A stretch of DNA of 64,000 bases from an uncultured Candidatus Saccharibacteria bacterium. GTDB taxonomy: Bacteria > Patescibacteriota > Minisyncoccia > Ryanbacterales > HO2-45-13. The stretch lies in contig CAYHBS010000003.1 in the NCBI GenBank assembly GCA_964354975.1, positions 4,086 through 68,085 on the forward strand. The letters are read 5' to 3'. The position numbers were made by a program, and so were the translations under genes. Shown here one piece after another: positions 1,843-61,985 of this stretch. Numbering within the stretch: the first letter of the stretch is position 1; each line of letters begins with the position of its first letter. Below the pieces are notes generated by a model. That model made no database searches. It was not told the origin of the DNA and saw only the letters and a list, made by a program, of their open reading frames with translations.

Positions 1843-1859
1843 TACCGATGGTAAGCAGA

Positions 1860-4883: not shown

Positions 4884-4912
4884 AGTGTAATGAAATAAAT
4901 AATTGCACAAGC

Positions 4913-7137: not shown

Positions 7138-7168
7138 ATAAAAAATATACTCACCCGATTGAAATCCC

Positions 7169-7513: not shown

Positions 7514-7625
7514 ATGTAATACCAAGAAATATTGCGCCCCGTCTTCATGTACAGCCACGGCGCTTTCATTGACAGCAAAATTCAATATCTTTATTATGAT
7601 TGAAGAATACCCCATGAGGTGCTAA

Positions 7626-7826: not shown

Positions 7827-7847
7827 AGGACGAGGCGGCTTTTTTAT
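7811..7847 (+). terminator. second copy of the terminator element (GCCGCCCGTCC-CTTAGA-GGACGAGGCGGC + T8)
   Basis: About 37/40 nt are identical to the element at 7101..7140. Confidence 0.55.
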
Positions 7848-16383: not shown

Positions 16384-18597
16384 TTACTGTGCGCCAATGG
16401 ATTTCAGCCATTCATCCACGGTTTGCGTGAATTCAGGATTCATTTGCTTTGCTTTCTTAGCGAACTCAATCGCCGCTTGTTTGTTTCCAAGATCCAGTGA
16501 CGTCTGCGCAAGCACGAGATTCATATAGGCGGTTCCATCAGGACTCACTGTATACTTGGTGATAAATTGCATAAATAGGAGTCGCTTATTCGGTTCAGGA
16601 ATGCGCATCACACGCTGCATAAAACTATCGATTTCCTCATTGTTCAGTTTTGTAATGCCATGTTCGGCAATATACGTTTCAAGAAATAACTGGGCCGACT
16701 GCGTGTCCTGCGCCTGCAAAAGCACATTCACAATCGGTGCCATCAGCGAACGCATGCGTCCCGAAATATCATAAGCTGTCGTAACAAGCGCAAGCGCCTC
16801 CACTTTCTTTTCCCTCGCAAGTTGGAGTTCCGCGTAACTCAAATAGTTTTGAATATACCCCGGAGCCTCGGTGATCGCCGCCTTGTAAAGCTCGTCCGCC
16901 CTGTCTCCTGCTGCACCACGTGAATCTTGGATCGCGAGAAGACGCCCAAGTAGTAATCGGTTTTTGAGTACCTGGGGCTCCGCAGCAACTTGCTCCTCCA
17001 TTTTTGCTACCGCCTCCGCAAGGAGTTTATTAGTCACGTCGTTACGCTCAGAAGATCTTAATGAAAGCTCCATCGCAATGATACCGAAGCGCTCGCGTAG
17101 CTCTCGAGAACCAAAGGTGTTTAATGCAAGCACCTCATTCATACGGGTCGCTATCTCTTCAAGAGTTTTTTGCTGCTGAAAAAACTGTAATACGTCAATA
17201 GTTCCTGTTGCCGCTTGAATTGGACGTACGTTGAGAAATAGCACTAGGAGCACCACAGAGACGAGCGCACCTGCTGGCACCATTGAGGCGATGGCTGGTT
17301 CTGCTGGCTTTATATTTTTGCTGCCATGTTCTACCGAGAACGTGTGCAAAAATGCGAGTGCAAACGCCAGGGTTAAATATGTGGTGATGCTATCAAACAC
17401 AAAGAAGTTCTGCATGAGATACGCGCCGTAGCCTCCCGCAAAAGCAAGGGCGACTGCAGATGAAATGACGCGCTTTTTCCACAATCGCCAGAGTGTATAG
17501 AGCGCCGCCACATGAATAGAGAGAAATGCGATAAATCCAAGAATGCCCGCATCCACTAACCACTCCAAAAACACATTGTGAGTGCGATCAAACCACGGTT
17601 CGTTTCCGTAGAGCGTCGGATTGTAATACTTGGCAAATGGCACAATAAACGTATCGGGCCCCCACCCGAGCACTGGGCGCTCACGCGCAGCCTCAATTGC
17701 CATTCCCCAAATTTTGATGCGGGGCTGATTTTGAATGTCAGTAAAAGACGTACCTGCAACTCGATTAAACAGAGGCACCGAGCGCACAACCGCGCTCTGC
17801 GGATACGCTTTAATTCCTGTAAGTAACGCTATACCAGCAATAACTGCCGCGAGTGCGCCGTACCTGAGTATTTTTTGTTTGGAAAAAATCAGCACCAGCA
17901 TTGTCATCGTCCCCACGCCCGCAAGAAGACCCACAAACGCTCCGCGACTTGCAGGAAGGAGAAAGGCTCCAAGCAACACCAACTCTAAGGTAATGAGCGT
18001 CCAACGCTTGAGTTGGTTCTTCCACTCACTCGCAAGGAGCCCTCCGACCACGAACATGTGTGTCATGAGATATACCGCGAGATAGATGAAGTTTCCAAAC
18101 GTTGCAAAGGGACGGTTCTCGGTCCCATACCCCTTCATCACATCAAATCCTTCCGCAAGAGTGAACAGCGCAATAAACGTCGCAACTCCAATGCTGACAT
18201 ATGCAAATCGCAACCAATCTGTTTTACTTTTGAGAATATGCGCTGCGGTAAGAAATAGCGCGAAGAGATGCAGATATGTAATCGTCCCCTCCATACGCTC
18301 GAAATTGGACCAGAAACTTTGATACGGATTGACCCCAAGAATTCCCGCAAGCGTGGCGATGCCCACGAACGCTCCGAACGCATATAGCACTATGCTTTTT
18401 CGAGGACGAAATGATGCGTCCAGCACCGCGAGCGATACCCACGCGACAAAGACAATTTCCGTGATGATCCGAAAAAAGAAGTTTTTTCCAGTAATAAACG
18501 GAAAATACATGGATTGAGTCACAATCAACGGAGTGAGGAGCAGTAACCCCAACCCAATGTACGCGACCCACTTGGCAAACGATTCGTAGGAGTTCAT
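16384..18597 (-). CDS. O-antigen ligase/polymerase-like (Wzy_C) polytopic membrane protein with C-terminal TPR repeats
   Basis: About 10 TM helices with Wzy_C-type motifs (SRGAFVGLLAGVG; THNVFLEWLVDAGILG). The C-terminal ~250 aa are TPR-like. Confidence 0.65.
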   Translation of the reverse strand: MNSYESFAKWVAYIGLGLLLLTPLIVTQSMYFPFITGKNFFFRIITEIVFVAWVSLAVLDASFRPRKSIVLYAFGAFVGIATLAGILGVNPYQSFWSNFERMEGTITYLHLFALFLTAAHILKSKTDWLRFAYVSIGVATFIALFTLAEGFDVMKGYGTENRPFATFGNFIYLAVYLMTHMFVVGGLLASEWKNQLKRWTLITLELVLLGAFLLPASRGAFVGLLAGVGTMTMLVLIFSKQKILRYGALAAVIAGIALLTGIKAYPQSAVVRSVPLFNRVAGTSFTDIQNQPRIKIWGMAIEAARERPVLGWGPDTFIVPFAKYYNPTLYGNEPWFDRTHNVFLEWLVDAGILGFIAFLSIHVAALYTLWRLWKKRVISSAVALAFAGGYGAYLMQNFFVFDSITTYLTLAFALAFLHTFSVEHGSKNIKPAEPAIASMVPAGALVSVVLLVLFLNVRPIQAATGTIDVLQFFQQQKTLEEIATRMNEVLALNTFGSRELRERFGIIAMELSLRSSERNDVTNKLLAEAVAKMEEQVAAEPQVLKNRLLLGRLLAIQDSRGAAGDRADELYKAAITEAPGYIQNYLSYAELQLAREKKVEALALVTTAYDISGRMRSLMAPIVNVLLQAQDTQSAQLFLETYIAEHGITKLNNEEIDSFMQRVMRIPEPNKRLLFMQFITKYTVSPDGTAYMNLVLAQTSLDLGNKQAAIEFAKKAKQMNPEFTQTVDEWLKSIGAQ

Positions 18598-19987: not shown

Positions 19988-21043
19988 TTAATATGTATTT
20001 CTTAACGTAATCTGTTCGTCCGGAGCAATATGTTGTTTCGCCCTGCGCCCAATAATGTGATTAAGTTGCTCTGGTCCTAATCCACCAATCAGTGGCCGCT
20101 TGAACAGTATATGGCTTTCGGTAATGTTTTCACCCCGAGTTATTTTTCGTGCAGCGACAATACTCTGCCCTGCCCACAGACGACTTTTATTGAGCGATTT
20201 TTTTGTAGAAAGATCTCGAAAAACCATACTTGCTTCTACATCTCGCGCCGCAGAAACAAACGTGATAAATTCATCCGACAACAATGCGCCGGGATTGTCC
20301 AATGATCGTGGGTCAGATTTATCAAAAGTAATATGTTTTTCCATTACTTTTATGCCCATCGCAATAGCAGCTAAAGGCACGTGATATCCGACCGTGTGAT
20401 CCGAATACCCTACAGGCCCCGTCACCATGTGTTGGAGCTCATAAATTTGTCGGAGTGCCGCATGTTGTGGTTTTGTGGGATATTCCGTTGTGCAATGTAA
20501 TGGAATCACCGATGGCGTTCCGCGCGAAACAAGTAGACGCACGCTGGACTGAATCTCTTTAGGAGTATGCATGCCAAACGAAATAATAACCGGTATTTTT
20601 TTTGATGCGACATGTGACAAAAATCGATGGTTATGCGCCTCACCCGATCCAACTTTAATACAATCCACCCCAAGCGCTACGAGCTTGTCCACACTTTCCT
20701 CATCGTGCGGACTCGCAAAACACGTAATGTGCTTTTTTTGTGCGTACGCAAACAATTTTTTTAAATTAGTAAACGACAGTTCCCGAGATTTCAGGCGCGT
20801 ATACCAGTTATACCCTAATTTCTTTTGATATTTTTGCGCCGAAACCTTTGAAACTAGAGACGCAGTATTCCACAGTTGAAATTTTATGGCATCGGCTTTT
20901 GCAGCAACCGCCGCATCAATTTGTTTTTTCGCGAGCGCATACTGGCCATAATTTGTCACTCCTCCCTCACAAATGATAAAAACGGGGTGACCGTCCCCGA
21001 TAGTGTGTTTGCCAATACGAATGGTGCGACTTGTTCGAATCAT
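19988..21043 (-). CDS. NeuB-family nonulosonic acid (sialic-acid-type) synthase, copy 1
   Basis: VFIICEGGVTNYGQY...ADAIKFQ at the start of the TIM barrel, and a C-terminal SAF domain (IVAARKITRGENITESHILFKRP). A GAGGTAGCT Shine-Dalgarno precedes ATG 21043. Confidence 0.75.
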   Translation of the reverse strand: MIRTSRTIRIGKHTIGDGHPVFIICEGGVTNYGQYALAKKQIDAAVAAKADAIKFQLWNTASLVSKVSAQKYQKKLGYNWYTRLKSRELSFTNLKKLFAYAQKKHITCFASPHDEESVDKLVALGVDCIKVGSGEAHNHRFLSHVASKKIPVIISFGMHTPKEIQSSVRLLVSRGTPSVIPLHCTTEYPTKPQHAALRQIYELQHMVTGPVGYSDHTVGYHVPLAAIAMGIKVMEKHITFDKSDPRSLDNPGALLSDEFITFVSAARDVEASMVFRDLSTKKSLNKSRLWAGQSIVAARKITRGENITESHILFKRPLIGGLGPEQLNHIIGRRAKQHIAPDEQITLRNTY

Positions 21044-21094
21044 AGCTACCTCAATGTATACTACTATTATACCTATTGTACGCAGTTCCATCAG

Positions 21095-21128
21095 CATAGA
21101 AAAGAGGGTCGCACATGTGCGACCCTCT
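21095..21128 (-). terminator. perfect-palindrome terminator (AGAGGGTCGCACATGTGCGACCCTCT + TTTTCT on minus strand)
   Basis: An 11-bp perfect stem with a 4-nt loop between the sqdB stop and the NeuB copy-1 start. Confidence 0.5.
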
Positions 21129-21136: not shown

Positions 21137-22306
21137 TCATGGCTTCCATTTTACCGTCGGCATGATAACTTCCGGTTCGATGTTCCGCTTCGCAGCGATC
21201 ACCGACCCCATCATCTCAGCTATCACCTCGTCAGTAAGCAAGTGCGGATGCAGACCGAGCGAAATCAGTGAGGAATTCTTCGCATTGTAGTAGTGCTCTT
21301 CGCTCTCTACTCTTGGGTTTCCGATCGATGCCATAGTGGCGTCGATTCCAAACTCACTATTTGCGACGTACTGCACGCGGCGCGCCAGCTCATTCACCGA
21401 ATACTGCTCAGTAAACTGATTGAACACTCGGAACTCTCCTTTCTCCGCTGGATGTGTCACTGCAAGCTCCACACACTGTAATGTATCGAGAATGTTGAGA
21501 TATCCGCGCGTTTGACCTCCGCGACCGTACACCGTGAGCGGAACACCCGATACAGCCTGCACGATGAAGCGGTTTAGAGCAGTGCCAAATACTCCGTCGT
21601 AGTGAAAGCTCGTAACAAATCCATCCGCAAGCAACGTCTCCGGCGTATGAATGCCGTAGACAACGCCCTGATTGAGGTCGGTAGCGCGCAACCCCCACGA
21701 TCGACAGGCGAACTCGATGTTCACACTGTCTGCAACCTTTGAAGCGTGGTAGAACGATCCCGGACGCTTTGGATACAGCATTCGATCTTTTCTCCCGCGA
21801 TGCTCAATCTCGATCCACCCCTCCTCAATATCGATGTTCGGAGTGCCGTACTCGCCCATCGTCCCAAGCTTCACCAGATGCGCATCAGGCACGATATCGC
21901 GCATCGCGAACAAAATGTTCAGCGTGCCAACAATGTTGTCCGCCTGCGTACGTGTTGCGCGCGAACGAGACATCATTGAATACGGTGCGGACGGCTGTTC
22001 GGCGTAATGGATGATCGCGTCGGGCAGAAACTCTCTCACAAACCCCAACGTTGCGCCGGGATTTGCAGCGATGTCTACCACATTCCCCTGCGGGAGCGCG
22101 ATCTCCGTTCCCTGCCCCGAGCGATTCCACAATCGCACGCGTTTTTGTAGCGTCGGCCGCGAGAAGAGTGGTTCACCGCCTACTTCTTCCTCCCATCTTC
22201 GTTTCGCTAAGCTATCAGCGATCGCTACAGAGTGTCCTCGCCTGGCAAAATACATTACGGTGGGCCAACCGAGATAGCCATCTCCACCAAGCACCATGAT
22301 GTTCAT
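21137..22306 (-). CDS. sqdB: UDP-sulfoquinovose synthase (SQD1/SqdB/Agl3 family)
   Basis: Near-colinear identity with the SQD1 sequence as I recall it: MVLGGDGYLGW, SAPYSM, GTMGEYGTPNIDIEEG, ATDLNQGVVYG, DGVFGTALNRF, TVYGRGGQTRGYL, EFRVFNQFTEQYSVNELA, NPRVESEEHYYNAKN, IMPTVKWK. AGGAGG precedes the ATG at 22306. Confidence 0.85.
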   Translation of the reverse strand: MNIMVLGGDGYLGWPTVMYFARRGHSVAIADSLAKRRWEEEVGGEPLFSRPTLQKRVRLWNRSGQGTEIALPQGNVVDIAANPGATLGFVREFLPDAIIHYAEQPSAPYSMMSRSRATRTQADNIVGTLNILFAMRDIVPDAHLVKLGTMGEYGTPNIDIEEGWIEIEHRGRKDRMLYPKRPGSFYHASKVADSVNIEFACRSWGLRATDLNQGVVYGIHTPETLLADGFVTSFHYDGVFGTALNRFIVQAVSGVPLTVYGRGGQTRGYLNILDTLQCVELAVTHPAEKGEFRVFNQFTEQYSVNELARRVQYVANSEFGIDATMASIGNPRVESEEHYYNAKNSSLISLGLHPHLLTDEVIAEMMGSVIAAKRNIEPEVIMPTVKWKP

Positions 22307-22378: not shown

Positions 22379-23089
22379 TTATGAGAAATTTCCATCCGAT
22401 TGAAGCATCTCAAGCATGTGCTCTCCGCGCTCAAAATCCTCGGGACAATCAATATCAAGTGAGCGATTGTCGGGCATTAGATACGGGAGAACGTGATCCC
22501 CGTATAAACGCCCTTTCAAGAGTACGTCGCGACGCACAGCGTATACAGCACCGTTACGCCAATACACGCGAGGTAGTTCTTGTCTGCGCGTACCCTCCGC
22601 CTCAACTGCACAAAACGATTTTAACATTCCATCTTCAATCACTTTTGCTTTTGCGGGATGATGGTCGATATATTCTACAACACTCACCGCGCTATCAGCA
22701 TCAGATTCCGCAAGCAAGTTTACCACCGAATCAATATCTTCAGAAAGACGTAGGGGCGATGTGGGCTGCAAGGTCACAACAATATCGTATGTGACGCCAT
22801 CCGCAGCTTCAGCAAACTTCAGAGCGTGCTGTAACACAGGGAGATGAGGAGTATCATCAGCCGCCAATGATGCTGGTCGAAAAAATGGCACATCTGCTCC
22901 TGCGGTACGCGCAATCTCAGCAATATGTTCATCGTCGGTAGAGACAATCGTGCGTGTGAGTGTGTGAGCTGATCGCGCTGCCGTAATCGTGTAGGTAATG
23001 AGAGGATTGCCTCCAAATAACTTCACATTTTTTCCAGGAATTCCTTTTGATCCTCCACGCGCAGTAATTACTCCAAGTACCCTCATCAT
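22379..23089 (-). CDS. acylneuraminate cytidylyltransferase family (CMP-NulO synthetase), copy 1
   Basis: VLGVITARGGSKGIPGKNVK plus the rest of the CTP_transf_3 fold. Confidence 0.8.
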   Translation of the reverse strand: MMRVLGVITARGGSKGIPGKNVKLFGGNPLITYTITAARSAHTLTRTIVSTDDEHIAEIARTAGADVPFFRPASLAADDTPHLPVLQHALKFAEAADGVTYDIVVTLQPTSPLRLSEDIDSVVNLLAESDADSAVSVVEYIDHHPAKAKVIEDGMLKSFCAVEAEGTRRQELPRVYWRNGAVYAVRRDVLLKGRLYGDHVLPYLMPDNRSLDIDCPEDFERGEHMLEMLQSDGNFS

Positions 23090-24252
23090 GATGTTGGGGG
23101 ATCGTTAAATTGTTTCTGCACGTAGAGTGGAGTGGATACCAGTGCCTCAGCCATACGACTACTGGTATCGGGTTGATAATAAAAAGAGTTCTGTTCATAC
23201 TTTCCGTGCTGTACTTGAACATTAATTGCACAGTATATGGCATCTGCATCATGTACAACGTCTCGTATATGAGGTCCGCGCGGTCGGCCATTCTGGCGTG
23301 ATCCAATATTCACTACTGGCGTTCCTAAAAACGAAGCTTCTTTAATTCCTGCAGATGAATTCCCCACCAAACACGCTGCCGCTTTCATGAGACCCATAAA
23401 TTCATTTGGCGGCAAATACTTAATGAATCGCATGTGCGTTGAATGATGGTGTTCGCGAAACGAACGAATACCACGAGATACTTCGTCGGTTCCTGCATCC
23501 ACGTTTGGCCAAAACCAAACGGTAGGCAGTCCTGTGCGCTGAACCGCATGGAGCGTTGCATCAATGTGTGCGCGATTTTTTCCTACTTCAGACGTTACGG
23601 GATGCTGCATCACAAGTAAAAATGGCTTCTGAATATCAACAACGTCCCCAACACCAATACTATTGACGTATGTATTGGTGAGATCAAATGTACTTTTTTC
23701 AACAAATTCAACGTCTAAACTTCCAAAATTATATACCGTATCAGGTCGCTCTCCCATTTGCAGAATCCGTTCATGTGCTTTCGAATTTGTAGGAAAATGA
23801 ATATGCGATAATTTTGTGATGGCGTGGCGCACTGATTCATCAATACTTCCGGTCACGTCTCCTCCCTCGATGTGTGCAACCGTAATATTCATGTATGCCG
23901 CGGCAATTGCGGCAGCGAGTACCTCAAATCGATCCGCGCGGAGTAATACAATGTCGGGCTTCAGATTTTGAAACGCGGTTGAAAATTCGATAATACCAAG
24001 TCCAGCTGTTTTTGCCATTGCCACTGGATTTCCACCTTCAATCGTCATGGTAATTTGTGCTGCTGGAACCAGTTGATGTTCCTGCATGAGCTTAATAACA
24101 TCACCATATTTATCGAGCATGGCGGACGCACCCACCACAATTTGGAGTTCAACATCCTCCCGGCGCGAGAGTTCGCTCAGCAACAAGATTCCCCGCGAAA
24201 AATGAATTGGGGACGTAATGATATAACAAATTTTCCTCTTCTTGGTTGTCAT
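23086..24252 (-). CDS. UDP-N-acetylglucosamine 2-epimerase, hydrolysing (NeuC/LegG type), copy 1
   Basis: VAHIEGGDVTGSIDESVRHAITKLSHIHFP is the hydrolysing-epimerase signature; its stop overlaps the next start by 4 nt. Confidence 0.8.
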   Translation of the reverse strand: MTTKKRKICYIITSPIHFSRGILLLSELSRREDVELQIVVGASAMLDKYGDVIKLMQEHQLVPAAQITMTIEGGNPVAMAKTAGLGIIEFSTAFQNLKPDIVLLRADRFEVLAAAIAAAYMNITVAHIEGGDVTGSIDESVRHAITKLSHIHFPTNSKAHERILQMGERPDTVYNFGSLDVEFVEKSTFDLTNTYVNSIGVGDVVDIQKPFLLVMQHPVTSEVGKNRAHIDATLHAVQRTGLPTVWFWPNVDAGTDEVSRGIRSFREHHHSTHMRFIKYLPPNEFMGLMKAAACLVGNSSAGIKEASFLGTPVVNIGSRQNGRPRGPHIRDVVHDADAIYCAINVQVQHGKYEQNSFYYQPDTSSRMAEALVSTPLYVQKQFNDPPTS

Positions 24253-25361
24253 AGCAATTTCACATCAGTAAGCGTGATCGGGGAAAACTGGGTCAGTGCG
24301 TGCATTACTTGCTTCCCAACGAGCTCTGCATAATCCTGAGCAAGTGCGCCCGGAATCAGTGCACGTGGGCGCATAGCCGCAAGATCTGTCTCCTCAATAG
24401 TCTCTCCCTCACGGATATCCCGCACTACCACGAGCGACTTATTAAAAAATGGGCGAAATGTATTATGCGCCCCTTCAAATTCTTTATCAATATCCCCATA
24501 AAAGGCCTCTGGAGATGCCGCTACATATGTCCCTGAGCGCACGGCGCGTACTAGTTCCTTCATTTCATGGGGTAACATGGACACCTTATGATCCGGCCCC
24601 CACGCATCACGCGACAAACTAAAATGTTTTTCTATCATTCTCGCCCCTATTTTGATCGCGGCAAGTGCAACGTCCATTCCAAGCGAATGATCGGAAAAAC
24701 CAACAATTGCATGTGGGTACGCGTCCTTCAGATACTGAATTGATGCTAAGTTAAATACTTCAGGTGGACATGGGTATTGGCTCACACAATACAGTATAAT
24801 CGGAGTTACCCGTGCGCGTGCCAAGTGCTGCATCACTGCCTGTAACTCTTGTCGGCTCACCATTCCCGTGGAAATGATGATGGGTTTTTTGAAACTCACA
24901 AGGGTATCAAGTAGAAGATAATCTAGTACGTCCGCAGATCCTACTTTCCATAGTGACATGCCGAGTTCAGACATTTGGATTGCAGCTCCTTTACTCATGG
25001 GAGTGGTGAACATGCGCATATGCTTTTCTGCACAATATATACTGAGCGGGCGCCAAAATGCATCCATCGGAGTCTGACGCGTGTTGCGCTCAACCCATCG
25101 ATATCGATCGTTCGCAGGAAAATGTGGGGAAACAATGGGAATATTAAGTTGTTCATCAGCAACATGATGTGTCTGAAACTTCACCGCATCAACACCAGCG
25201 TCCACGGCGGCGTCCACAAGCAACTGTGCGCGACGCAGTAATGTTTCAACAGATTCTTCCTCCTCGGTCACAATAAAATTCTTTCCAATTTCAGCAACAA
25301 TAAAGACGTCCCTCCCCGATCGTCGCTCTAAATCATTCAACGTCATTGCATGCATATCCAT
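24249..25361 (-). CDS. NeuB-family nonulosonic acid synthase, copy 2
   Basis: FIVAEIGKNF...GVDAVKFQTH and a C-terminal SAF domain. Confidence 0.8.
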   Translation of the reverse strand: MDMHAMTLNDLERRSGRDVFIVAEIGKNFIVTEEEESVETLLRRAQLLVDAAVDAGVDAVKFQTHHVADEQLNIPIVSPHFPANDRYRWVERNTRQTPMDAFWRPLSIYCAEKHMRMFTTPMSKGAAIQMSELGMSLWKVGSADVLDYLLLDTLVSFKKPIIISTGMVSRQELQAVMQHLARARVTPIILYCVSQYPCPPEVFNLASIQYLKDAYPHAIVGFSDHSLGMDVALAAIKIGARMIEKHFSLSRDAWGPDHKVSMLPHEMKELVRAVRSGTYVAASPEAFYGDIDKEFEGAHNTFRPFFNKSLVVVRDIREGETIEETDLAAMRPRALIPGALAQDYAELVGKQVMHALTQFSPITLTDVKLL

Positions 25362-26803
25362 TGGTATAACGCATCCGCTACCCTTTGACTAGAGTTACCA
25401 TCCGCATATGTACATTGCTCACGTACAAGTCGCATTCTGCCATTATGATGAGTGGATGGAACGCGAAGTGTTGCGGTGATAAGATCACGCAGTTCATGTG
25501 AAGATTGAGCGAGTTGTATTCCTCCCGTCAGTATGGCATTCCGATAATGTTCCGTTCCATAGAAAAACGTTGGCGAACGAAGCGGATTGATATTTTTGCG
25601 CAACTCAAAATTAATATTAATCACAGGAATATCAAGTATTGCAGCGTCGATCGAAAAACTCGAAGCGTAACATACTACGAGGGCTGCATTTGAAAGCGTT
25701 TCTCGCAGTTGTTGGAGTTGCTCAAAATTCATATCCCAATCTCCACCACGATGCTTCGCAAATCGCTTTGATGGTATTTCGTACCGCAACCAGGGTCGAC
25801 GAGCAATTTCATCATCTTGGATTACATCGTTCGGAGGAAACCGTACAAATAATTTCCATGCGTACACGTCGCGCGCGTCCACTTCAAATTGATGTAAGAG
25901 ATCAATCATATCCCAATCAGAATTGCTAAATGCACTTCCAATGGGACTGTACAGCACTATGCGATCATTCGGATCACAACCAATACGTTCTCCGTGTACG
26001 GCTCGGCTCGCATATGGTGGTAGTTGATGTCCATAAAACGTAGCTACTTCATGGAGAGCCTCCGGACGCACGTACATATCATATTGTGGAAGCCCCACGG
26101 TACGTATGCGGCTCGGAGGAACATCTTGAAATCGTTCCATTTGCGTCACTAATACATCGTTGTACACCGTGTATTGATCTGTTAGTACACGCATTGCGGA
26201 GCGCGCAGTAATTTTATCCCAACTATTCATATAGCCCACCGTGCGTATTCCCATGCGGCGCGCTTCTTTTATCAATTCAACTTCGTCAGGATCCATTTGA
26301 TTTGCGATCATCACGAGATTTGGTCGAATAGACGAAAGAATTTCTTGATAGAAATTTCCAGTGTTGATACTCGCGTCCAATCTTCGGATAGTAGCGCGTA
26401 TGAATGGACGCGCGAGAAGAAAGTGTAAAATAAGTTTATAGTAATAAAATACTATGCCTCCCTTTGTGGCGCTCAGCATACGCGCGCGGAGTGTCGTCGT
26501 GCGAGAGCGCAACATATAATACCGGAGTATTTCAAATGTGTGCTCTCTCCAGTCCGTTTTCCCTGCTCTCCCTGAGTGCACAATAAATTGTATGCGCTCG
26601 TGTTGTATTTCATGGCGGTAGTACTCTAATCGTTCCTGATTTTTTACTAACATCACAACGCGGACATCTTCGTGTTTCAGTAAGTGCATCATGACTCCTG
26701 TGCGTAACAAATTTTTCCCTTCGATACCTTCAAAGATGGGAAGTAGGAGCGTATACGTGGTGGGCACAGTGTGTGTATGCATGAACTCGTTAGCCTTCAT
26801 CAT
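25343..26803 (-). CDS. TagF-like (CDP-glycerol glycerophosphotransferase-like) GT-B family protein, paralog 1
   Basis: Shares family motifs with the three other paralogs: G(I/V)R(T/V)(V/I)G(Y/M)xxSWD(K/N)(I/L); GLPQYDMY; VVCYASSFSIDAAILDIPVININFE (DYSS-like region of Glyphos_transf); C-terminal REQC. Confidence 0.45.
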   Translation of the reverse strand: MMKANEFMHTHTVPTTYTLLLPIFEGIEGKNLLRTGVMMHLLKHEDVRVVMLVKNQERLEYYRHEIQHERIQFIVHSGRAGKTDWREHTFEILRYYMLRSRTTTLRARMLSATKGGIVFYYYKLILHFLLARPFIRATIRRLDASINTGNFYQEILSSIRPNLVMIANQMDPDEVELIKEARRMGIRTVGYMNSWDKITARSAMRVLTDQYTVYNDVLVTQMERFQDVPPSRIRTVGLPQYDMYVRPEALHEVATFYGHQLPPYASRAVHGERIGCDPNDRIVLYSPIGSAFSNSDWDMIDLLHQFEVDARDVYAWKLFVRFPPNDVIQDDEIARRPWLRYEIPSKRFAKHRGGDWDMNFEQLQQLRETLSNAALVVCYASSFSIDAAILDIPVININFELRKNINPLRSPTFFYGTEHYRNAILTGGIQLAQSSHELRDLITATLRVPSTHHNGRMRLVREQCTYADGNSSQRVADALYQWICMQ

Positions 26804-26848
26804 AATGAAAGAATGGGGAACACCGCAAACGCGACGCTCCCCATATTG

Positions 26849-27925: not shown

Positions 27926-27956
27926 TTTACTGACCTCCAAAGAATTCGTTTGGATT

Positions 27957-30299: not shown

Positions 30300-31730
30300 T
30301 CATTTCATGAGATATTTCCCCAATAAAGGAAGGGAGCGAACTGCGGCACGGGCGTACGTGCGATCCGTTTCATTAAAGCGAAATAACGATGAAAATGGAA
30401 ACCGCTGAATAAATCCTGTGCGCACCAAATAGTAATACTTAGATATAACGACAAATCCATAGGCAAAAGTTTCTGCAATTGCAAGTCCCGAAAGCCCCAT
30501 GATTGGAACTAACCCTAGCATCGCTCCTGCACGGACCGTCTGCTCTACCAGTGATTGGGCTGCGATAAATCGCTGGCGTCGCTCTGCTACAAGAAATATA
30601 TTTGTTAATTTGGTAAATGCAAAAAGAAACACCGTAGGAAGAAGCAAATAAAATAGCGTGATGGAGTCCGTCAGATGCGGAAACAAGATGTGCACTGCGA
30701 TCGGATACCCCACCGCCCCACCACATATCAATACGATACTCAACACTACGTAGTATTTTGTTCCGAAAACAAAAATGCGATTCATACGATCTCGATCCCC
30801 TACCACGCGGGGAATCAACGCATTCAATGTCCTAGTGGGAATAACATCCTTCAAAAGTGATGTTGCCATACTTGCGACGCTGTAGATACCCACTGATGCT
30901 GTATTCAAAAATGCACGAATAATCCACGGGCGGATATTCCCGAGCATATTCCGAATTGAAGTTTCGATGATCTGCCAACCACCATATTGTTTAATGAGTC
31001 TATATAATTGTCCTCGAGGGGCAGCCGTGAAGTTCGCCCACGCTCGCGTCGTACGCAGCGCTGGCCCGAGAATTGTGAGTACCGCAATCGTCATGCCAAC
31101 AAGTTGTCCGAGCAAGAGTTGTGTAATGGTGAGTTGATCTTTGAAAAAGAAATAACCCACAAAACACACTTCACCAAATTTTTGGAGTGATGGTCGCATG
31201 GCGAGCACTTTAAACTGCAATGATGCGGAGAGTAATTGATTCAACATGCCAAGCACCCCTTGTAACACAAATATAAGTGACAATATGCGTGCCCAAAGAA
31301 AAAACTCACTCCCATATGAAGGAAGTACCTGTGGCAGCAGCATCCACACTGCCACTGCCGGAATAAGCACAAACATCATTCTAAACAATGCGTGCTCCCA
31401 GAATAATCTTTTTGCACGCGCGTGGTTACCCTCTCCAATGGCACGAGTGATTTCATTTGCAGTAATAGACGCGAAGAGATCGTGACAAATATCAGACGCG
31501 ATGGTGAACCCAGAAAGTAAGAGCTGATACAATCCCAGTTGATACAAATCGAGTGTGCGCAGGACAAAAAATGAGCCGACGAGCCCAACTCCCTTTTTGA
31601 TAAAACTCCAAAGGCCAAGATGAAATTCGCCGCCAATAAAAGTATTGAGTGAAGGCGTATTCACTTCTTCTACTGCAATGCGTTGATACACCAACACGTG
31701 TGGCGACACATCAGAATCGGGATGCATCAT
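30300..31730 (-). CDS. Wzx-type polysaccharide flippase (MOP/PST superfamily)
   Basis: 476 aa with ~12-14 TM helices and PST-like organisation. Confidence 0.65.
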   Translation of the reverse strand: MMHPDSDVSPHVLVYQRIAVEEVNTPSLNTFIGGEFHLGLWSFIKKGVGLVGSFFVLRTLDLYQLGLYQLLLSGFTIASDICHDLFASITANEITRAIGEGNHARAKRLFWEHALFRMMFVLIPAVAVWMLLPQVLPSYGSEFFLWARILSLIFVLQGVLGMLNQLLSASLQFKVLAMRPSLQKFGEVCFVGYFFFKDQLTITQLLLGQLVGMTIAVLTILGPALRTTRAWANFTAAPRGQLYRLIKQYGGWQIIETSIRNMLGNIRPWIIRAFLNTASVGIYSVASMATSLLKDVIPTRTLNALIPRVVGDRDRMNRIFVFGTKYYVVLSIVLICGGAVGYPIAVHILFPHLTDSITLFYLLLPTVFLFAFTKLTNIFLVAERRQRFIAAQSLVEQTVRAGAMLGLVPIMGLSGLAIAETFAYGFVVISKYYYLVRTGFIQRFPFSSLFRFNETDRTYARAAVRSLPLLGKYLMK

Positions 31731-32717: not shown

Positions 32718-32766
32718 AGAACAACAAAATAATACAACAACGCTCGTCGTATTTTCGACGTTGTTA
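32718..32766 (-). terminator. probable terminator after the 2-hydroxyacid dehydrogenase gene
   Basis: Imperfect hairpin (AACAACG..CGTCG/CGACG..CGTTGTT) overlapping the stop, then a T-rich tract on the minus strand. Confidence 0.4.
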
Positions 32767-34436: not shown

Positions 34437-34437
34437 T

Positions 34438-51365: not shown

Positions 51366-52741
51366 AGAGTATGTATGATTGCACGTGCAACACGTTCGGC
51401 GGACTTGCCGTCTGTCATATAACATTGCTCTTGAACAATACGCGCCCTCCCCTCACGCAGCATTGCAGGAACCTGCAATGCATCGTTGAGCGCAGTAACC
51501 ATTTCGTCGGCAGAATGCACAATAGCAATACCATTCAGTGTACGGATCTTTGCAAGATGATTCCAGTCAAAAAAACGTCGCGCAGAATTCCAGTATGGCC
51601 GCCGCAAAGCGCCATCAAACGCAACGCCGACAATCGGCTTATCCAATATTGCTGCTTCAATAAAAAATGTGGAATACATGGTGACAACGACATCGGCGTA
51701 GATAAGACTATGATGCAAAAAATTTACTGCCTCGTCTGTAAATTCCCAATTATGCACAGTGTCAGCAACGTGCCCAACAGCTGATACAACAAAAAATCGA
51801 TATGCGGACCGCATGCGTTCCATGCGTTTTTCAGAGAAATCGTAGCGAGGATATGGACGAATAAGTACGTTGACGGACTCGCTGAGTGCGTGCGCCTCAA
51901 GAGATTCATGTAAGATGCGCAAAATATCAAACTCGATATCAAGCGCTGCTTTCCCTGAAAATGCGTACAAAATGGTTTTTTTACTTGGATCTGCGCCGAT
52001 ACTGTTGAGAAATTCTTCTCGCGACATTGTCACTCGGCCCGAAAAATACCGATCATATTGGGGAATGCCCGTGATACACACGCGATTCCTTGGAAAATCG
52101 CCGTATGTTGCAGCAAGTTCAAGAATTTCCGGTGTATGTACGAGCAGCGTATCCGGATGCACACGAATGATCGTCTTACTATATAGATTATCCCAGCTTA
52201 ATATCATACCCACTACTCTCACGCCTCTCCTCCGCGCAACTTTGGCAAGAATATGATCTTCGCTATGAATGACATTGGAACAATACACGACATCAGGATT
52301 GTAGCGATCCAGCAGCGAATCAAATGTATGATCGGAGAAGCGAGCATAACTCCAACGAATCATTCTTCTCCACCATGAAAATTGGCCTAAACAACCACAC
52401 ATCACTTCCACGGGATACAAGAGCAACGTACGAATCCCATTCCACGAAAAAGAAAAATTACTTTGAAATAGATAAGTGCGTTGCATGCGCGCTGTTCTAC
52501 TATGAATACTTGCGCGTTCAATGAATTGAAAGAATGTCTCCACCACGGGTCGTTGCAATTCTGGCAATACATCGAAGGTGATCGATGACTCGGGAAATTC
52601 CAAAGCGTAATACTCTACTTTTTCCTTTGGCACTAACACCACTAATCGATCCCCCGGTTGCTCAATGATAATCCTAGCTGCGTCAGTGCGCAGAAAATTT
52701 CTTACAAAAAATCCGTCGTGTATTGCCGTCAAAATTGTCAT
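51362..52741 (-). CDS. TagF-like GT-B family protein, paralog 4
   Basis: GVRVVGMILSWDNL; GIPQYDRY; VVVTMYSTFFIEAAILDKPIVGVAFDG; QEQC. Confidence 0.45.
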   Translation of the reverse strand: MTILTAIHDGFFVRNFLRTDAARIIIEQPGDRLVVLVPKEKVEYYALEFPESSITFDVLPELQRPVVETFFQFIERASIHSRTARMQRTYLFQSNFSFSWNGIRTLLLYPVEVMCGCLGQFSWWRRMIRWSYARFSDHTFDSLLDRYNPDVVYCSNVIHSEDHILAKVARRRGVRVVGMILSWDNLYSKTIIRVHPDTLLVHTPEILELAATYGDFPRNRVCITGIPQYDRYFSGRVTMSREEFLNSIGADPSKKTILYAFSGKAALDIEFDILRILHESLEAHALSESVNVLIRPYPRYDFSEKRMERMRSAYRFFVVSAVGHVADTVHNWEFTDEAVNFLHHSLIYADVVVTMYSTFFIEAAILDKPIVGVAFDGALRRPYWNSARRFFDWNHLAKIRTLNGIAIVHSADEMVTALNDALQVPAMLREGRARIVQEQCYMTDGKSAERVARAIIHTL

Positions 52742-53937
52742 GTAATGTATGTTGTAAATACGTCGTTCAATGCTTTCGCTTGTGCGGTGGACGTCAAACT
52801 ACGCTCAATAAGGGCTCTTCCTTCTTTGCCAAGTGCGCGCGCAACATCTGGATGCGTCGTAAGAAATGTCACATGCGCTGCAATAGCCTCGGTATCAAAT
52901 GGATCATGTAGCAATGCGTGCACTCCATGTGTTAAGACTTCGCTTGCCCCTGCAGTTCGAGAAACTATGACGGGCATCCCTGTCGAGAGCGCCTCACACA
53001 CTGCGATTCCCCACGACTGAATATGACTCGGAAACAAAAACACATCATGAGAAAGATACATGTCAGCAAGTTGCTCGTCCGATACCGCACCGTAAAACGT
53101 CACGCACTCGTCGAGTCCCAGCTCATGCACTAATTGTCTCAGTGACTGTTCATACGCACGTTGCTGCGCATACTCGCCTGCAATAGTCAGCGTTGCCTGA
53201 ATGCCACGATGTCGCAACAATTGGAGCGCACGAATTCCATCTTCGAATCGCCGATGTGGAAAGAAAATACCAAACAGTAATAACTTCGGTGCCGTGCGAC
53301 TAATGTTGCGTTCTCGAAATGGGAACGACTCGATTGTCACCCCTGGACGCAATATATGCACGGGAATACGGTACTCACTACGTGCCCACATTGCGTCCCG
53401 CTCGTCTAATACAACAACTGCATCCTGCGGAACGATATGTGTACGGATATCGTATGCGTCAATCATCCAATCAATCATTTTTTTGAGTCGCGACCTTTCA
53501 TCAATGATTCCTTGCATGCGACATCGTTCCACCGATAGGGCACGTGTTGCGGGATCATTCATGATCCATACCGAAGGAATATGCAGCCGTTTTTTTGCCA
53601 CTGCAGCAACGCGGTAGCTCACCTGATCGTGTGGATTGAGCAGATTAAAGCCCGCGGGTATTTTTCGGGCAAGTCGCGCCGGATTAAGAAATTCATTTCT
53701 TAAAAACGCAACAACCTTCCATGCTCTCCACGAGCCCTGGGTAGCGTGCACTACATTCTCTTCGAGTGTGGTCACCTTCACCGCAGCGGATATCTGAAAG
53801 GTATCATGTGGCTCGAAGTAAAAAGTGAAGATCTCCACCGAATGTCCAAGTTGCGTCAGGTGTTCGGCAAGTGTCAGTGCTTGTCGTTGCGTGCCACCGC
53901 GAATATTGAGTCGGCGCACAATCATCGCAATATTCAT
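52738..53937 (-). CDS. glycosyltransferase family 4
   Basis: GIAVCEALSTGMPVIVSRTAGASEVL (EX7E region). Confidence 0.75.
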   Translation of the reverse strand: MNIAMIVRRLNIRGGTQRQALTLAEHLTQLGHSVEIFTFYFEPHDTFQISAAVKVTTLEENVVHATQGSWRAWKVVAFLRNEFLNPARLARKIPAGFNLLNPHDQVSYRVAAVAKKRLHIPSVWIMNDPATRALSVERCRMQGIIDERSRLKKMIDWMIDAYDIRTHIVPQDAVVVLDERDAMWARSEYRIPVHILRPGVTIESFPFRERNISRTAPKLLLFGIFFPHRRFEDGIRALQLLRHRGIQATLTIAGEYAQQRAYEQSLRQLVHELGLDECVTFYGAVSDEQLADMYLSHDVFLFPSHIQSWGIAVCEALSTGMPVIVSRTAGASEVLTHGVHALLHDPFDTEAIAAHVTFLTTHPDVARALGKEGRALIERSLTSTAQAKALNDVFTTYIT

Positions 53938-54494
53938 TTGCGGAGTGTTATTTCAATGTTTTCTGCGGGAAATATCCGTGACCATCCTGTTGATTCATAT
54001 ATATACTGGTTCCGCGCGCTGTAGTTTACTATCCTTGAAACAATCGCATTATATAAAAACCATCTTGAACTGCGCTCGAACGTAATAATCTTTTTCACCA
54101 TCTTTGTAAACGAAAAATTGTGATAATATCCTCTCCCCTTTGGAGGATGCGTAGTAAAGAAATCGAACGTTCGAATAGCAAATATTTTTTTATGTGTGGG
54201 GTCTGTATAACTATTCTTAGAGGTAAAATGCGGAACGCGAATAGTAATAGTGCCTCCCGGCTGCAATATGCGAAAGATATCTTTGAGTACAGGAATGTAC
54301 TCAATGTGCTCGAATATATCTTGGCACACCACTTCGGAAATACTCCCACTTGCAAATGGTAGTGGTACCTGTTGCACATCGTGCACTATATCCACTCCGG
54401 GAAGTTGCGACGAGTCCACATTCACCCAACCAGGCTTGATGTCATACCCACACCCAAAATTTATTTTTATCGGATTATTCATATGTTGGCGCAC
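53934..54494 (-). CDS. class I SAM-dependent methyltransferase (small, Methyltransf_11/23-like)
   Basis: INFGCGYD...LQPGGTITI. Confidence 0.6.
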   Translation of the reverse strand: MRQHMNNPIKINFGCGYDIKPGWVNVDSSQLPGVDIVHDVQQVPLPFASGSISEVVCQDIFEHIEYIPVLKDIFRILQPGGTITIRVPHFTSKNSYTDPTHKKIFAIRTFDFFTTHPPKGRGYYHNFSFTKMVKKIITFERSSRWFLYNAIVSRIVNYSARNQYIYESTGWSRIFPAENIEITLRK

Positions 54495-55567
54495 ACTGAG
54501 CGATATATATTCATATACGCTGCAATTTTACCATTCCAACCATTCCGCTCAGCCCACTCTCGTGATGCACCGGAAAGTTGTGTGTGAAGTGTATGATTTA
54601 CACAAATGTTGCGAATAATTTTGGCACATGCTTCCACGTCGCGCTCTGGTATAAGAAACCCATTATAGCCGTCTACCACCGCGTCTTCAACACCGCACTC
54701 TGTGCTGCCAATCACCGGGATACCGAACGCTGCTGCTTCAAGAAATACGAGACCAAATCCTTCGACATCGTGCCCTACATTTTGAGAAAGGAGGACAAAG
54801 AGTTCTGCATGACGATACCACGACATCAACGCCGATTCGGTATTCACATCGGTCAGTAGATGTACGCGATCTTTCACATGAAGCTGCTCTATTTTTTGTT
54901 CAAGGCGACTGAGCATTTCCTTGGAGTACGGACGACCTACAATTACGTAGTGCAAATCTGGAACGTACTCGGCAATTTTTGCAAATGCCTCGATGCTATA
55001 TTGATACCCTTTACGCCACCGAATGGCTCCCACACTCAACATATACCGGTACGGAAGAGGGGATATATCAGACGCAACTGCACGGATTGCCTCAGCGTCC
55101 ACCCCAGGAGTAATGACCTCAATATTGCCTCTCCCGCTTGCTGTTTGTGCCTTTCGTTTTGTATATGTACTGATTGCTGTAACCGCGCGGACGGACCGAA
55201 ATACATGACGCGCTATATATCTGGTTATCCCTGAGTATAGAGAAATGAGTGTGCCACTACCGACCGCGGTGATAATAATAGGTCTGCCAAGTCCAAAGGA
55301 AAGTATGTAGGCAATGAGACCGAATGGATATAAGTCAAGCGCATGGATAATATCTGCTTCACGAAAACATGCCCGTATACGTAACGCGTTTTTTACAAGA
55401 TCGCGCTTATGAGGTCCAAGATATGCAAAATGAGACATATCTCCACCGGGAACACTGGTGAGTACTACAGTATCTATCTGTTCTTTTATTCCGTGCACTA
55501 AATGACGCGTGAATACCCCAGCGCCATTATCATCTTGTACATTCAGTGCGAGTATGCAGACCTTCAT
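54479..55567 (-). CDS. glycosyltransferase family 4
   Basis: GFGLVFLEAAAFGIPVIGSTECGVEDAV. Confidence 0.75.
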   Translation of the reverse strand: MKVCILALNVQDDNGAGVFTRHLVHGIKEQIDTVVLTSVPGGDMSHFAYLGPHKRDLVKNALRIRACFREADIIHALDLYPFGLIAYILSFGLGRPIIITAVGSGTLISLYSGITRYIARHVFRSVRAVTAISTYTKRKAQTASGRGNIEVITPGVDAEAIRAVASDISPLPYRYMLSVGAIRWRKGYQYSIEAFAKIAEYVPDLHYVIVGRPYSKEMLSRLEQKIEQLHVKDRVHLLTDVNTESALMSWYRHAELFVLLSQNVGHDVEGFGLVFLEAAAFGIPVIGSTECGVEDAVVDGYNGFLIPERDVEACAKIIRNICVNHTLHTQLSGASREWAERNGWNGKIAAYMNIYRSVCANI

Positions 55568-55571
55568 ATAC

Positions 55572-59840: not shown

Positions 59841-59842
59841 AG

Positions 59843-61959: not shown

Positions 61960-61985
61960 TAGAAATACTATATTATAGTGGCACA

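Follow-up and report, generated by a model that had tools for sequence, protein, structure and literature searches.

Why does a homolog of the plant enzyme SQD1 lie among the genes for nonulosonic acids (NulOs) in a bacterium of the candidate phyla radiation (CPR)? We addressed this question for a 64,000-nucleotide stretch of DNA, hereafter called "the window" (contig CAYHBS010000003.1, positions 4,086 to 68,085, NCBI GenBank assembly GCA_964354975.1), from an uncultured Candidatus Saccharibacteria bacterium, placed by GTDB in the Patescibacteriota (Minisyncoccia; Ryanbacterales; HO2-45-13). The gene occupies positions 21137..22306 of the minus strand, starts with ATG, and encodes a 389-residue extended short-chain dehydrogenase/reductase (SDR). 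Sulfoquinovose is among the most abundant organosulfur compounds, and to our knowledge the SQD1 synthase family has so far been treated as functionally uniform, providing UDP-sulfoquinovose (UDP-SQ) for sulfolipid or archaeal N-glycans. The family of the window protein, its catalytic residues, the replacement of Arg101 (SQD1 numbering) by proline, the linkage with NulO genes, a dedicated clade of the NulO synthase NeuB, and the sulfite genes in relatives are firmly established in the following. Judging from the sequences, the novelty lies in an SQD1-family branch whose active site is altered and whose pathway context is new. We propose, with about an even chance of being right, that this branch performs a sulfite-dependent C6-sulfonation of a UDP-N-acetylhexosamine (UDP-HexNAc), the product of which passes through NeuC and NeuB to a CMP-9-deoxy-9-sulfo-nonulosonic acid.

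An SQD1-family enzyme with an altered active site

In a phmmer search of the PDB sequences, the best match of the window protein is Arabidopsis SQD1 (1qrr/1i24/1i2b; E 2e-134, 452 bits), and residues 2-388 are collinear with SQD1 residues 3-383, while the next-best SDR follows at E ~1e-7. The identity to Arabidopsis SQD1 (At-SQD1) is 52% by BLASTP. The AlphaFold2 model (pLDDT 85, pTM 0.88) matches the SQD1 structures 1QRR, 1I24, and 1I2B with a TM score of 0.90 (51% identity, E 5e-46), as compared to a TM score of ~0.6 (E ~1e-18) for the best structures outside SQD1, namely GalE, RmlB, and similar SDRs. Pfam assigns the generic Epimerase family, and nothing narrower. The initial annotation of this DNA, which claimed collinearity with plant SQD1 over nearly the whole length, is thus borne out, and the motifs it quoted are all found in the translation (GTMGEYGTPNIDIEEG, ATDLNQGVVYG, FGTALNRF, TVYGRGGQTRGYL, EFRVFNQFTEQYSVNELA, and NPRVESEEHYYNAKN). 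The gene is a true relative of plant SQD1, and its product is a member of the SQD1/SqdB/Agl3 family rather than of the GalE-type or any other SDR family.

The protein shares with Arabidopsis SQD1 and cyanobacterial SqdB (UDP-sulfoquinovose synthase, EC 3.13.1.1) the fold, the GxxGxxG NAD site (GGDGYLG, residues 7-13), the catalytic residues, and the family-specific motifs FGTALNRF, GGQTRGY, and NPRVExEEHYYN. The signature of UDP-SQ synthases, [ST]MG...Yx3K, has been described in a review of nucleotide-sugar dehydratases (PMC8987622), and is kept as GTMGEYG and YHASK in the alignment to SQD1. The conserved residues are T145, M146, G147, E148, Y149, S180, Y182, H183, K186, and Q209 in SQD1 numbering, and they include the catalytic Thr/Tyr/Lys that the initial annotation had singled out for inspection. 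The enzyme probably shares the oxidation, dehydration, sulfite-addition, and reduction chemistry of SQD1.

The conservation of the SQD1 active site does not extend to Arg101, however. In the alignment, this arginine (HFGEQRSAPYS) corresponds to Pro105 of the window protein (HYAEQPSAPYS), which is one of a set of signature residues—K35, E39, P46, Y101, P105, S233, H235, and N271 in window numbering, at SQD1 positions 36, 40, 47, 97, 101, 229, 231, and 267. We hereafter use the label SqdB* for SQD1-family extended SDRs of this Pro101 type. Against the NCBIfam equivalog for UDP-sulfoquinovose synthase (NF041015), the window SqdB* scores 419 bits, under the curated cutoff of 575, and the identical protein, encoded on the 27-kb contig JBBTQA010000027.1 of NCBI assembly GCA_038065875.1, is annotated solely as "NAD-dependent epimerase/dehydratase family protein". 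With its proline in place of Arg101 and its score below the cutoff, SqdB* is, as far as the sequence tells, no textbook SqdB.

What does Arg101 do? The residue roles considered here are taken from the mutagenesis of the archaeal homolog Agl3 and from a COACH prediction for a diatom enzyme. The R101A mutant of Agl3 is inactive (PMC4388408). In diatom SQD1, R168, which we equated with Arg101 through the correspondence of T212 with T145, is predicted to lie in the NAD pocket as well as in that of UDP-SQ (COACH with SQD1-crystal templates; PMC7281551). The initial annotation expected UDP-6-sulfoquinovose, made from UDP-Glc, to be the product. Because of the proline at this position, the score below the cutoff, and the placement of the protein outside the plant SQD1 grouping, this assignment does not appear secure, and the expectation cannot be upheld as it was written.

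Linkage of SqdB* with nonulosonic acid genes across phyla

Among the top 120 database matches, proline occupies position 101 in 119/119 homologs with a findable motif, whereas Arg101 is present in At-SQD1 and 42/42 Arg-type bacterial homologs (43/43 in all). We assembled 80 loci from named genomes and further loci via exact-protein look-ups, called their open reading frames (ORFs), and used tblastn and hidden Markov models built from the window NeuB, NeuC, and CMP-synthetase genes to search the flanks. The removal of duplicate loci left 40 Pro101 loci and 42 Arg-type loci, which were compared over a range of 10 kb. A NeuB, NeuC-like, or CTP_transf_3 (CMP-NulO synthetase type) gene lies within this range in 28/40 Pro101 loci versus 0/42 Arg-type loci (Fisher p = 8e-13, uncorrected for phylogeny). 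The NulO-linked loci belong to the Patescibacteria (CPR), several orders of Alphaproteobacteria including the Pelagibacteraceae (SAR11), Betaproteobacteria (Gallionellaceae, Rhodocyclaceae, and Hydrogenophilales), Actinomycetota (Gaiellaceae and others), and Nitrospiraceae. The gene order of the window—NeuC, CMP-synthetase, SqdB, NeuB—is seen again in L016, L026, and L035. Moreover, SqdB* and NeuB are same-strand neighbors in at least 12 loci, and overlapping SqdB*-NeuB genes (by 4-13 bp in L026, L039, and L092) are found in three phyla.

Seven positions (R36K, D40E, S47P, R101P, R229S, D231H, and D267N), at all of which the window SqdB* differs from SQD1, separate 28 NulO-linked sequences from 43 Arg-type sequences nearly perfectly. 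In a neighbor-joining (NJ) tree that left out the Agl3, cyanobacterial, and Rhodobacter sequences, At-SQD1 falls among the Arg-type set and the window protein among the Pro101/NulO-linked set.

In the window, SqdB* has the following surroundings.

21137..22306, minus strand: SqdB*, SQD1-family extended SDR of the Pro101 type, predicted sulfite-dependent C6-sulfonating UDP-sugar enzyme
21103..21128, minus strand: hairpin with a perfect 11-bp stem, 8 nt past the SqdB* stop and before NeuB_a (z-score -3.5 in a 101-nt context)
19988..21097, minus strand: NeuB_a, NulO synthase of the clade called S below, downstream of SqdB*; the NCBI start corresponds to 21043
22379..23089, minus strand: CMP_a, CTP_transf_3 protein (CMP-NulO synthetase type), immediately upstream of SqdB*; best match PseF, below the cutoff
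23086..24252, minus strand: NeuC_a, hydrolyzing UDP-GlcNAc 2-epimerase (TIGR03568, 346 bits versus a cutoff of 235.9), overlapping CMP_a by 4 bp
24249..25361, minus strand: NeuB_b, second NulO synthase, of a clade other than that of NeuB_a
25343..26803, minus strand: unk486, of the same family as unk450 (see below)

The initial annotation had placed the gene between a CMP-NulO synthetase and a NeuB gene, in the company of Wzx, Wzy-like, and phosphoglycosyl transferase (PGT) genes, and all of these are indeed present.

The neighbors of the Arg-type genes bear on the classical explanation, in which UDP-SQ is handed to an SqdX/SQD2-type family 4 glycosyltransferase (GT4) to form sulfoquinovosyl diacylglycerol. 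Membership in the SQD1 family and the ten GT4/Glycos_transf_1 genes of the window speak for this role. In Aerococcus, Brachybacterium, and Rubrobacter, an SqdX-like GT4 gene lies immediately downstream of the Arg-type SqdB; in Amycolatopsis, Kribbella, and Nonomuraea, family 2 glycosyltransferase (GT2), SDR, and methyltransferase genes lie nearby. The SqdX-like GT4s are 46-49% identical to each other between Firmicutes and Actinomycetota (334-357 bits), whereas the best window GT4 reaches 24-27% identity and ~70 bits against them, and neither the window nor any NulO-type locus yielded an SqdX-like GT4 ortholog (E <= 1e-20). The window SqdB* also stands outside the grouping that has sqdX neighbors, and in its Wzx/Wzy/PGT setting, NeuB, NeuC, and the CMP-synthetase take the place of an SQD2/SqdX glycosyltransferase as partners. 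As these stretches contain no SqdX ortholog, we rejected the sulfolipid role, which we consider very unlikely. The preference of the initial annotation for a glycan over a sulfolipid therefore stands. Its count of ten GT4 genes is exact as well, but "nearby" was generous, as they are located 18-41 kb away from SqdB*.

Pro101 enzymes also occur in other surroundings. In L015, L019, and L024, an SqdB with the full signature is followed at 3-9 bp by a UDP-glucose/GDP-mannose-dehydrogenase-family gene (L015 10060-11343; L019 11182-12456), with no NulO genes within 10 kb, and in L027, L032, and L036, a full-signature SqdB is accompanied by TackOD1 and GT2 genes, again with no NulO genes. A second Pro101 lineage, which retains R229 and D231, is found in Actinomycetes (L058, L069, and L077), in a tight operon in which a chitin-synthase-like GT2, SqdB, and a polysaccharide deacetylase are 12-31 bp apart. 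This arrangement hints at a sulfonated polymer resembling poly-N-acetylglucosamine or chitin.

A dedicated NeuB in a conserved module

Which genes accompany SqdB* constantly? We clustered all ORFs within 7 kb of the Pro101 gene in 28 loci, and ran Pfam on the representatives. On the same strand as SqdB*, NeuB is present in 24/28 loci, NeuC and CTP_transf_3 in 23/28 each, the unk486 family in 15/28, an ABC exporter in 14/28, and a B12-radical-SAM protein and a D-2-hydroxyacid dehydrogenase in 7/28 each. No PseB/LegB-type dehydratase, aminotransferase, acetyltransferase, or second recognizable glycosyltransferase is conserved in these surroundings, and the minimal proteobacterial loci contain one recognizable transferase-like family. 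The window unk486 has no PDB sequence match and no Pfam match of its own. Since relatives of the unk486 family weakly match Glyphos_transf and the C-terminal half of Epimerase_2 (GT-B fold), the family is a candidate NulO transferase.

In the NeuB tree, the SqdB-nearest copies of 22 loci, from all of these phyla, form a single clade, hereafter called "S", which includes the window NeuB_a; the window NeuB_b and a NeuB-cupin fusion are placed outside it. According to an alignment with NmNeuB, taken from the PDB, the S clade keeps every metal, phosphoenolpyruvate (PEP), and sugar ligand of that enzyme, including R314; NeuB_a retains E25, K53, Q55, K129, S132, S154, Y186, S213, H215, H236, D247, and R314 (NmNeuB numbering). 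NeuB_a nevertheless scores below both the NeuB equivalog cutoff (266 versus 399.65) and the PseI cutoff (206 versus 340.25). In NmNeuB, R314 touches the N-acetyl carbonyl of N-acetylmannosamine (ManNAc), and the C6-OH of ManNAc is held by an Asn in the β2-α2 loop (PMC11339185). As R314 is kept, the substrate of the S-clade enzymes is expected to be N-acetylated. In the S clade, a shortened loop takes the place of the β2-α2 region and leads into a conserved basic motif, W-x-x-R-[LM]-[RK]-x-[KR], which reads NWYTRLKSR in NeuB_a; Trp invariably occupies the position of F288.

The motif is present in 110/120 top database homologs of NeuB_a, and at least 11 homologs are on contigs equal in length to those of SqdB matches. 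In 5/5 independently looked-up S-clade members on long contigs, a Pro101 SQD1 homolog lies within 7 kb. A scan of metagenome contigs with NeuB_a yielded two distant matches and no more. The unit that is robustly stable across genomes is SqdB(Pro101) with the S-clade NeuB. A precedent for a NeuB homolog acting on a C6-anionic substrate is the mammalian NANS, which uses ManNAc-6-phosphate (PMC11339185).

Two further kinds of genes were observed next to the module. In several phyla, the SqdB-NeuB pair repeatedly has radical-SAM/SPASM and B12-binding radical-SAM genes as immediate neighbors (L091 8856-9881; L039 12168-13520; L026 643-1665 and 3450-5492; L035 1624-3825; L098 9904-11442; L099 4546-6576; L009 12946-14931), which raises the question of a further tailoring of the sugar. 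Sulfotransferase-family genes (Sulfotransfer_1, with a faint Sulfotransfer_2 match) are located in the proteobacterial NulO/SqdB clusters L091 (7801-8745) and L092 (14822-15505), and the glycans of these two may carry sulfate esters besides a sulfonate.

Sulfite-supply genes beside SqdB* in CPR relatives

In eight CPR loci (L003, L012, L014, L018, L095, L097, L098, and L099), a PAPS_reduct (CysH) gene directly adjoins SqdB*. The L003 protein passes the NCBIfam phosphoadenylyl-sulfate reductase equivalog NF002537 (175 bits versus 154), and all of the CysH copies examined have the terminal ECG[LI]H and the CC...CxxC cysteines typical of Fe-S adenylyl-sulfate (APS) reductases. L097 additionally encodes a CysD-like PAPS_reduct-family protein of 301 residues and a CysN-like GTP_EFTU protein, which together with CysH span 1158-4043 inside the glycan operon. 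In L095, a gene of the TauE/SafE sulfite/sulfonate transporter family (5999-6745) is placed between SqdB* and the CMP-synthetase, also inside the glycan operon, and both L095 and L098 have their sulfur genes inserted between NeuC and the CMP-synthetase. With these CysD/CysN/CysH/TauE genes, the genome-reduced CPR bacteria seem to maintain a private branch of sulfate reduction.

In L099, a single uninterrupted ORF (6590-8071) fuses a CTP_transf_3 domain to an APS-reductase-type CysH. Three diverged Paceibacterales-type clusters, 71-100% identical (P0241-P0243), share this architecture, and one of them comes from an NCBI Paceibacterales metagenome-assembled genome; the fusion, though restricted to this lineage, is therefore no assembly artefact. 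The CTP-binding motif of the fusion looks degenerate (PAKGNSEKIPKRN, versus PARGGSKRIPKKN in the neighboring L099 paralog).

The CysH, CysD/CysN, and TauE genes beside SqdB* orthologs in CPR make it, indirectly, very likely that the Pro101 enzymes still use sulfite, and they tie its production to the NulO genes, rather than to a separate glycosyltransferase. The window SqdB* itself presumably uses sulfite as well. These genes also bear on the possibility that the Pro101 branch does not sulfonate at all, and is a UDP-hexose(NAc) 5,6- or 4,6-dehydratase feeding a 9-deoxy NulO, like Pen/Pal in the pseudaminic acid synthesis of Bacillus thuringiensis. In the absence of sulfite, SQD1 and Agl3 release UDP-Glc-5,6-ene, and Pen makes GlcNAc-5,6-ene en route to CMP-pseudaminic acid (PMC8987622). 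The essential role of Arg101 in Agl3, its predicted contact with UDP-SQ, and a window lacking a sulfite-supply gene would all fit such a dehydratase. It would hardly explain why genomes tending to be minimal keep sulfite-generating and transport genes beside SqdB* in eight CPR loci; moreover, the 51-52% identity to SQD1 with all other catalytic residues kept, and a module with no conserved aminotransferase or acetyltransferase, disfavor it. We regard the non-sulfonating dehydratase as improbable.

Proposed pathway

How could these enzymes act together? We infer that the substrate of SqdB* is UDP-N-acetylglucosamine (UDP-GlcNAc) rather than UDP-Glc, as suggested by the score of NeuC above the TIGR03568 cutoff, the R314 kept in NeuB_a, and the polysaccharide deacetylase in the other Pro101 contexts. 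NeuC and NeuB would, by the same proposal, accept sulfonated intermediates.

Sulfonation: SqdB* would oxidize C4 of UDP-GlcNAc in an NAD-dependent manner, and eliminate water across C5-C6. The resulting enone would be trapped with sulfite at C6, rather than by the delivery of a hydride, and the re-reduction of C4 would give UDP-6-deoxy-6-sulfo-GlcNAc.

Epimerization and condensation: A NeuC-type hydrolyzing 2-epimerase would then release 6-deoxy-6-sulfo-ManNAc. The S-clade NeuB would join this sugar with PEP, yielding a 9-deoxy-9-sulfo acid resembling N-acetylneuraminic acid (Neu5Ac).

Activation and transfer: The CTP_transf_3 enzyme would activate the acid as its CMP-sugar, which would be moved, with the unk486/unk450 family as the candidate transferase, onto a surface glycan built by the Wzx/Wzy/PGT machinery.

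SqdB* would thereby stand where PseB, LegB, or Pen stand in other NulO pathways. In the Neu5Ac, legionaminic (Leg), and pseudaminic (Pse) acid pathways (NeuC or LegG; NeuB, LegI, or PseI; NeuA, LegF, or PseF), an extended SDR (PseB/LegB or Pen/Pal) likewise acts first on UDP-GlcNAc, by C4 oxidation and C5-C6 elimination, and is followed by a 2-epimerase, PEP condensation, and CMP activation; their operons have a gene order of the same style, NeuC - CMP-synthetase - SDR - NeuB. The SqdB* module differs from the Leg and Pse pathways in that its SDR is of the SQD1 family and would trap the 5,6-ene with sulfite, rather than reducing it to a 6-deoxy sugar, and in that it conserves no aminotransferase or acetyltransferase; its predicted product bears a sulfonate at C9. 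Mammalian NANS (Neu5Ac-9-phosphate synthase) condenses PEP with a ManNAc that is anionic at C6, as proposed for NeuB_a; its anion is a phosphate ester that is later removed, whereas that of the SqdB* pathway would be a lasting C-sulfonate in the final sugar.

The generalization of this route, as a widespread pathway of CPR, SAR11, other Alpha- and Betaproteobacteria, Actinomycetota, and Nitrospiraceae that makes CMP-9-deoxy-9-sulfo-Neu5Ac or a close analogue—with an SQD1-family entry step replacing the 4,6-dehydratase, a dedicated NeuB, and in CPR a sulfate-to-sulfite branch—is put forward tentatively, as having slightly less than an even chance.

Precursor or independent sugar donor

Does the sulfo-sugar enter the NulO at all? 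In the chief alternative, UDP-sulfoquinovose or UDP-6-sulfo-QuiNAc is transferred directly, as an independent donor, into a glycan that also bears ordinary NulOs, and the gene linkage reflects a horizontally mobile glycan cassette. Agl3 of Sulfolobus acidocaldarius provides the precedent, with sulfoquinovose in a protein glycan (PMC4388408). This enzyme of the S-layer N-glycan directs an SQD1-family product into a glycan, not a lipid, with sulfite as the co-substrate and a dehydratase-like mechanism; it is ~40% identical to SQD1 and retains the essential Arg101, where SqdB* has proline, and its UDP-SQ is the direct glycosyl donor with no involvement of NulO genes, while SqdB* is linked to them. 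The many transferases in the ~47-kb cluster of the window (Wzx, Wzy_C, PGT, ten GT4, GT2, TagB-like, and GT-C-like) also favor an independent donor. So do the Pro101 enzymes that lack NulO neighbors and lie by a GT2 and a deacetylase or by a UDP-sugar dehydrogenase-family gene; there, direct use is the simplest explanation, and from these contexts (dehydrogenase, GT2, and deacetylase) it clearly happens somewhere.

Further results weigh against the NulO-precursor pathway. In about seven well-flanked loci with the full signature, no NulO gene lies inside 10 kb, and the product of the Pro101 enzyme is therefore evidently usable outside the NulO pathway. The NeuC and the CMP-synthetase phylogenies are not module-specific: an SqdB-specific clade was sought for each, but the members adjacent to SqdB are spread over both of the two clades found in each tree. 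In the window, NeuB_b, NeuC_a, and CMP_a (24249..22379) have their orthologs in the second, SqdB-distal NulO set of L022 and L012, whereas NeuC_b and CMP_c (33.7-35.6 kb), which are accompanied by unk450, a methyltransferase, and a D-2-hydroxyacid dehydrogenase, group with the copies adjoining SqdB* in other CPR loci. Thus, the CMP-NulO synthetase named by the initial annotation is immediately upstream as described, but by orthology, NeuC_a and CMP_a probably belong to a different NulO set. The strong hairpin separates SqdB* from NeuB_a, a feature that would suit an independent donor, and with the orthology and the hairpin positions, it is ambiguous which NeuC and CMP-synthetase serve SqdB* in this organism. 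A tblastn search of the 64-kb stretch detected no CysH, CysD, CysN, or TauE gene. The facing of the basic S-clade motif toward the substrate pocket is predicted from the alignment. In a literature search of incomplete coverage, O-sulfated sialic acids were the only sulfur-bearing kind encountered, with no C-sulfonated NulO.

Two more points of this kind concern the tree and residue 101. After the removal of the signature columns, the NJ bootstrap was 69% for a split uniting At-SQD1 with at least 40 Arg-type sequences and free of signature-type sequences. A clean monophyletic "signature clade" had to be discarded, as its exact bipartition received ~0% bootstrap against the 69% of the looser split. 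Because the tree support is moderate and the exact bipartition was not recovered, "clade" is a working term for the Pro101 branch, which the signature and the context separate better than the tree does. As for residue 101, its equivalent in WbpP/PelX, the "hexagonal box" position of GalE K84 and WbpP G102, is a sugar contact, and bulky substitutions there in WbpP failed to abolish the use of N-acetylated substrates (bioRxiv 10.1101/2020.05.26.111013). Residue 101 therefore gives no prediction as to whether N-acetyl groups are more or less readily accepted, and since the PelX paper contradicts a size rule for such acceptance, we drew no direct argument for UDP-GlcNAc from Pro101.

An independent donor, for its part, leaves unexplained a NeuB clade that is found essentially only with SqdB*, the SqdB*-NeuB overlaps in three phyla, the location of CysH and SqdB* between NeuC and the CMP-synthetase, and the CysH~CMP-synthetase fusion; the minimal proteobacterial loci, with their single recognizable transferase-like family, also fit it poorly. 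We consider the independent donor to be a real but lesser possibility. The SqdB-NeuB linkage that crosses phyla, the dedicated NeuB clade, and the interleaved sulfite-supply genes point toward the sulfo-sugar as a NulO precursor, more than as a second independent sugar. The initial annotation imagined a glycan carrying both a sulfo-sugar and sialic acid-type sugars; NulO genes do adjoin SqdB*, but these three lines of evidence had escaped it.

Significance

The literature search, with its incomplete coverage, found nothing that links sulfoquinovose or sqdB to Patescibacteria, nonulosonic acids, or neuB. Current pipelines label the large sister branch described here either too specifically, as "UDP-sulfoquinovose synthase", or too broadly, as a generic epimerase/dehydratase. 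Should the sulfo-NulO product prove real, it would represent a new class of both natural organosulfonates and nonulosonic acids, and add a permanently anionic, C-sulfonated member to the sialic acid-like sugars of bacterial surfaces, flagella, and S-layers. As SAR11 and CPR bacteria are very abundant, it would also be an extra sink and source in the marine and groundwater organosulfonate cycle. CPR bacteria generally lack assimilatory pathways, and the proposed pathway, if correct, would explain why some of them keep a CysD/CysN/CysH set within a glycan operon. The route would comprise four enzymes and be directly testable in vitro. Even with an independent donor, a conserved glycan with a sulfonated sugar and a NulO would be an unusual surface chemistry for episymbiotic CPR cells.

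Organization of the window

The genes described above are part of a nearly unbroken minus-strand array for glycan biosynthesis, which extends over ~47 kb (16384-63179) and contains three NulO sets. The other features are as follows.

16384..18597, minus strand: Wzy_C-domain polymerase or ligase, 737 aa, syntenic with the Kaiserbacteria locus L007
18601..19986, plus strand: Bac_transf phosphoglycosyl transferase (initiating PGT), convergent with NeuB_a
26813..26844, minus strand: hairpin with a perfect 14-bp stem, between the GFO/IDH gene and unk486
26849-27982, minus strand: GFO/IDH oxidoreductase, third NulO set
27957-28700, minus strand: CMP_b, third NulO set
28697-30256, minus strand: NeuB-cupin fusion, 519 aa, third NulO set, lacking D247 and R314 of NmNeuB
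30300..31730, minus strand: Wzx-type flippase (Polysacc_synt)
32764-33750, minus strand: D-2-hydroxyacid dehydrogenase
33735-34484, minus strand: CMP_c
34438-35598, minus strand: NeuC_b (TIGR03568, 364 bits versus a cutoff of 235.9)
35595-36347, minus strand: methyltransferase
36340-37692, minus strand: unk450, unk486 family
40298-41395: tenth GT4/Glycos_transf_1 gene
41392-42492: DegT aminotransferase
48370-49971: weakly GT-C/PMT_2-like protein
52738..63179: nine GT4 glycosyltransferase genes

The genes unk486, NeuB_b, NeuC_a, CMP_a, and SqdB* form an apparent transcription unit, with NeuB_a following after the hairpin at 21103..21128, which is possibly a terminator, an attenuator, or an mRNA-stability element. 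The hairpin at 26813..26844 likely marks a boundary of transcription units, and either hairpin may be a terminator or a processing site that divides the array. Promoter-like sites in the window are not enriched over shuffled sequences, and the window contains no tRNA and no Rfam element. The three CTP_transf_3 proteins of the window all have PseF as the best NCBIfam match, each below its cutoff, and among the remaining ORFs of the window, no sulfur-related and no lipid-related gene was found.

The NeuB-cupin fusion is always accompanied by its own CTP_transf_3 and GFO/IDH oxidoreductase genes (in the window, L003, L009, L014, and L095), and its cupin part weakly matches D-lyxose/mannose isomerases, which suggests that this set makes a KDN-like, non-N-acetylated NulO from an isomerized hexose. 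The DegT aminotransferase, together with SDRs that also lie 20 kb from SqdB*, possibly works for one of the two remaining NulO sets. The array further contains rhamnose-type SDRs, a sugar C-methyltransferase, at least seven methyltransferases, two TagF-like genes, an LPG_synthase_TM protein, a GT2, and a TagB-like gene. For a CPR genome, such an array means a very heavy investment. The cluster is flanked by large putative surface proteins, at 1860-4910 (1016 aa, CBM_4_9) and 63148-63969 (PKD and Lamin-tail domains), which are possible carriers or partners of the glycan.

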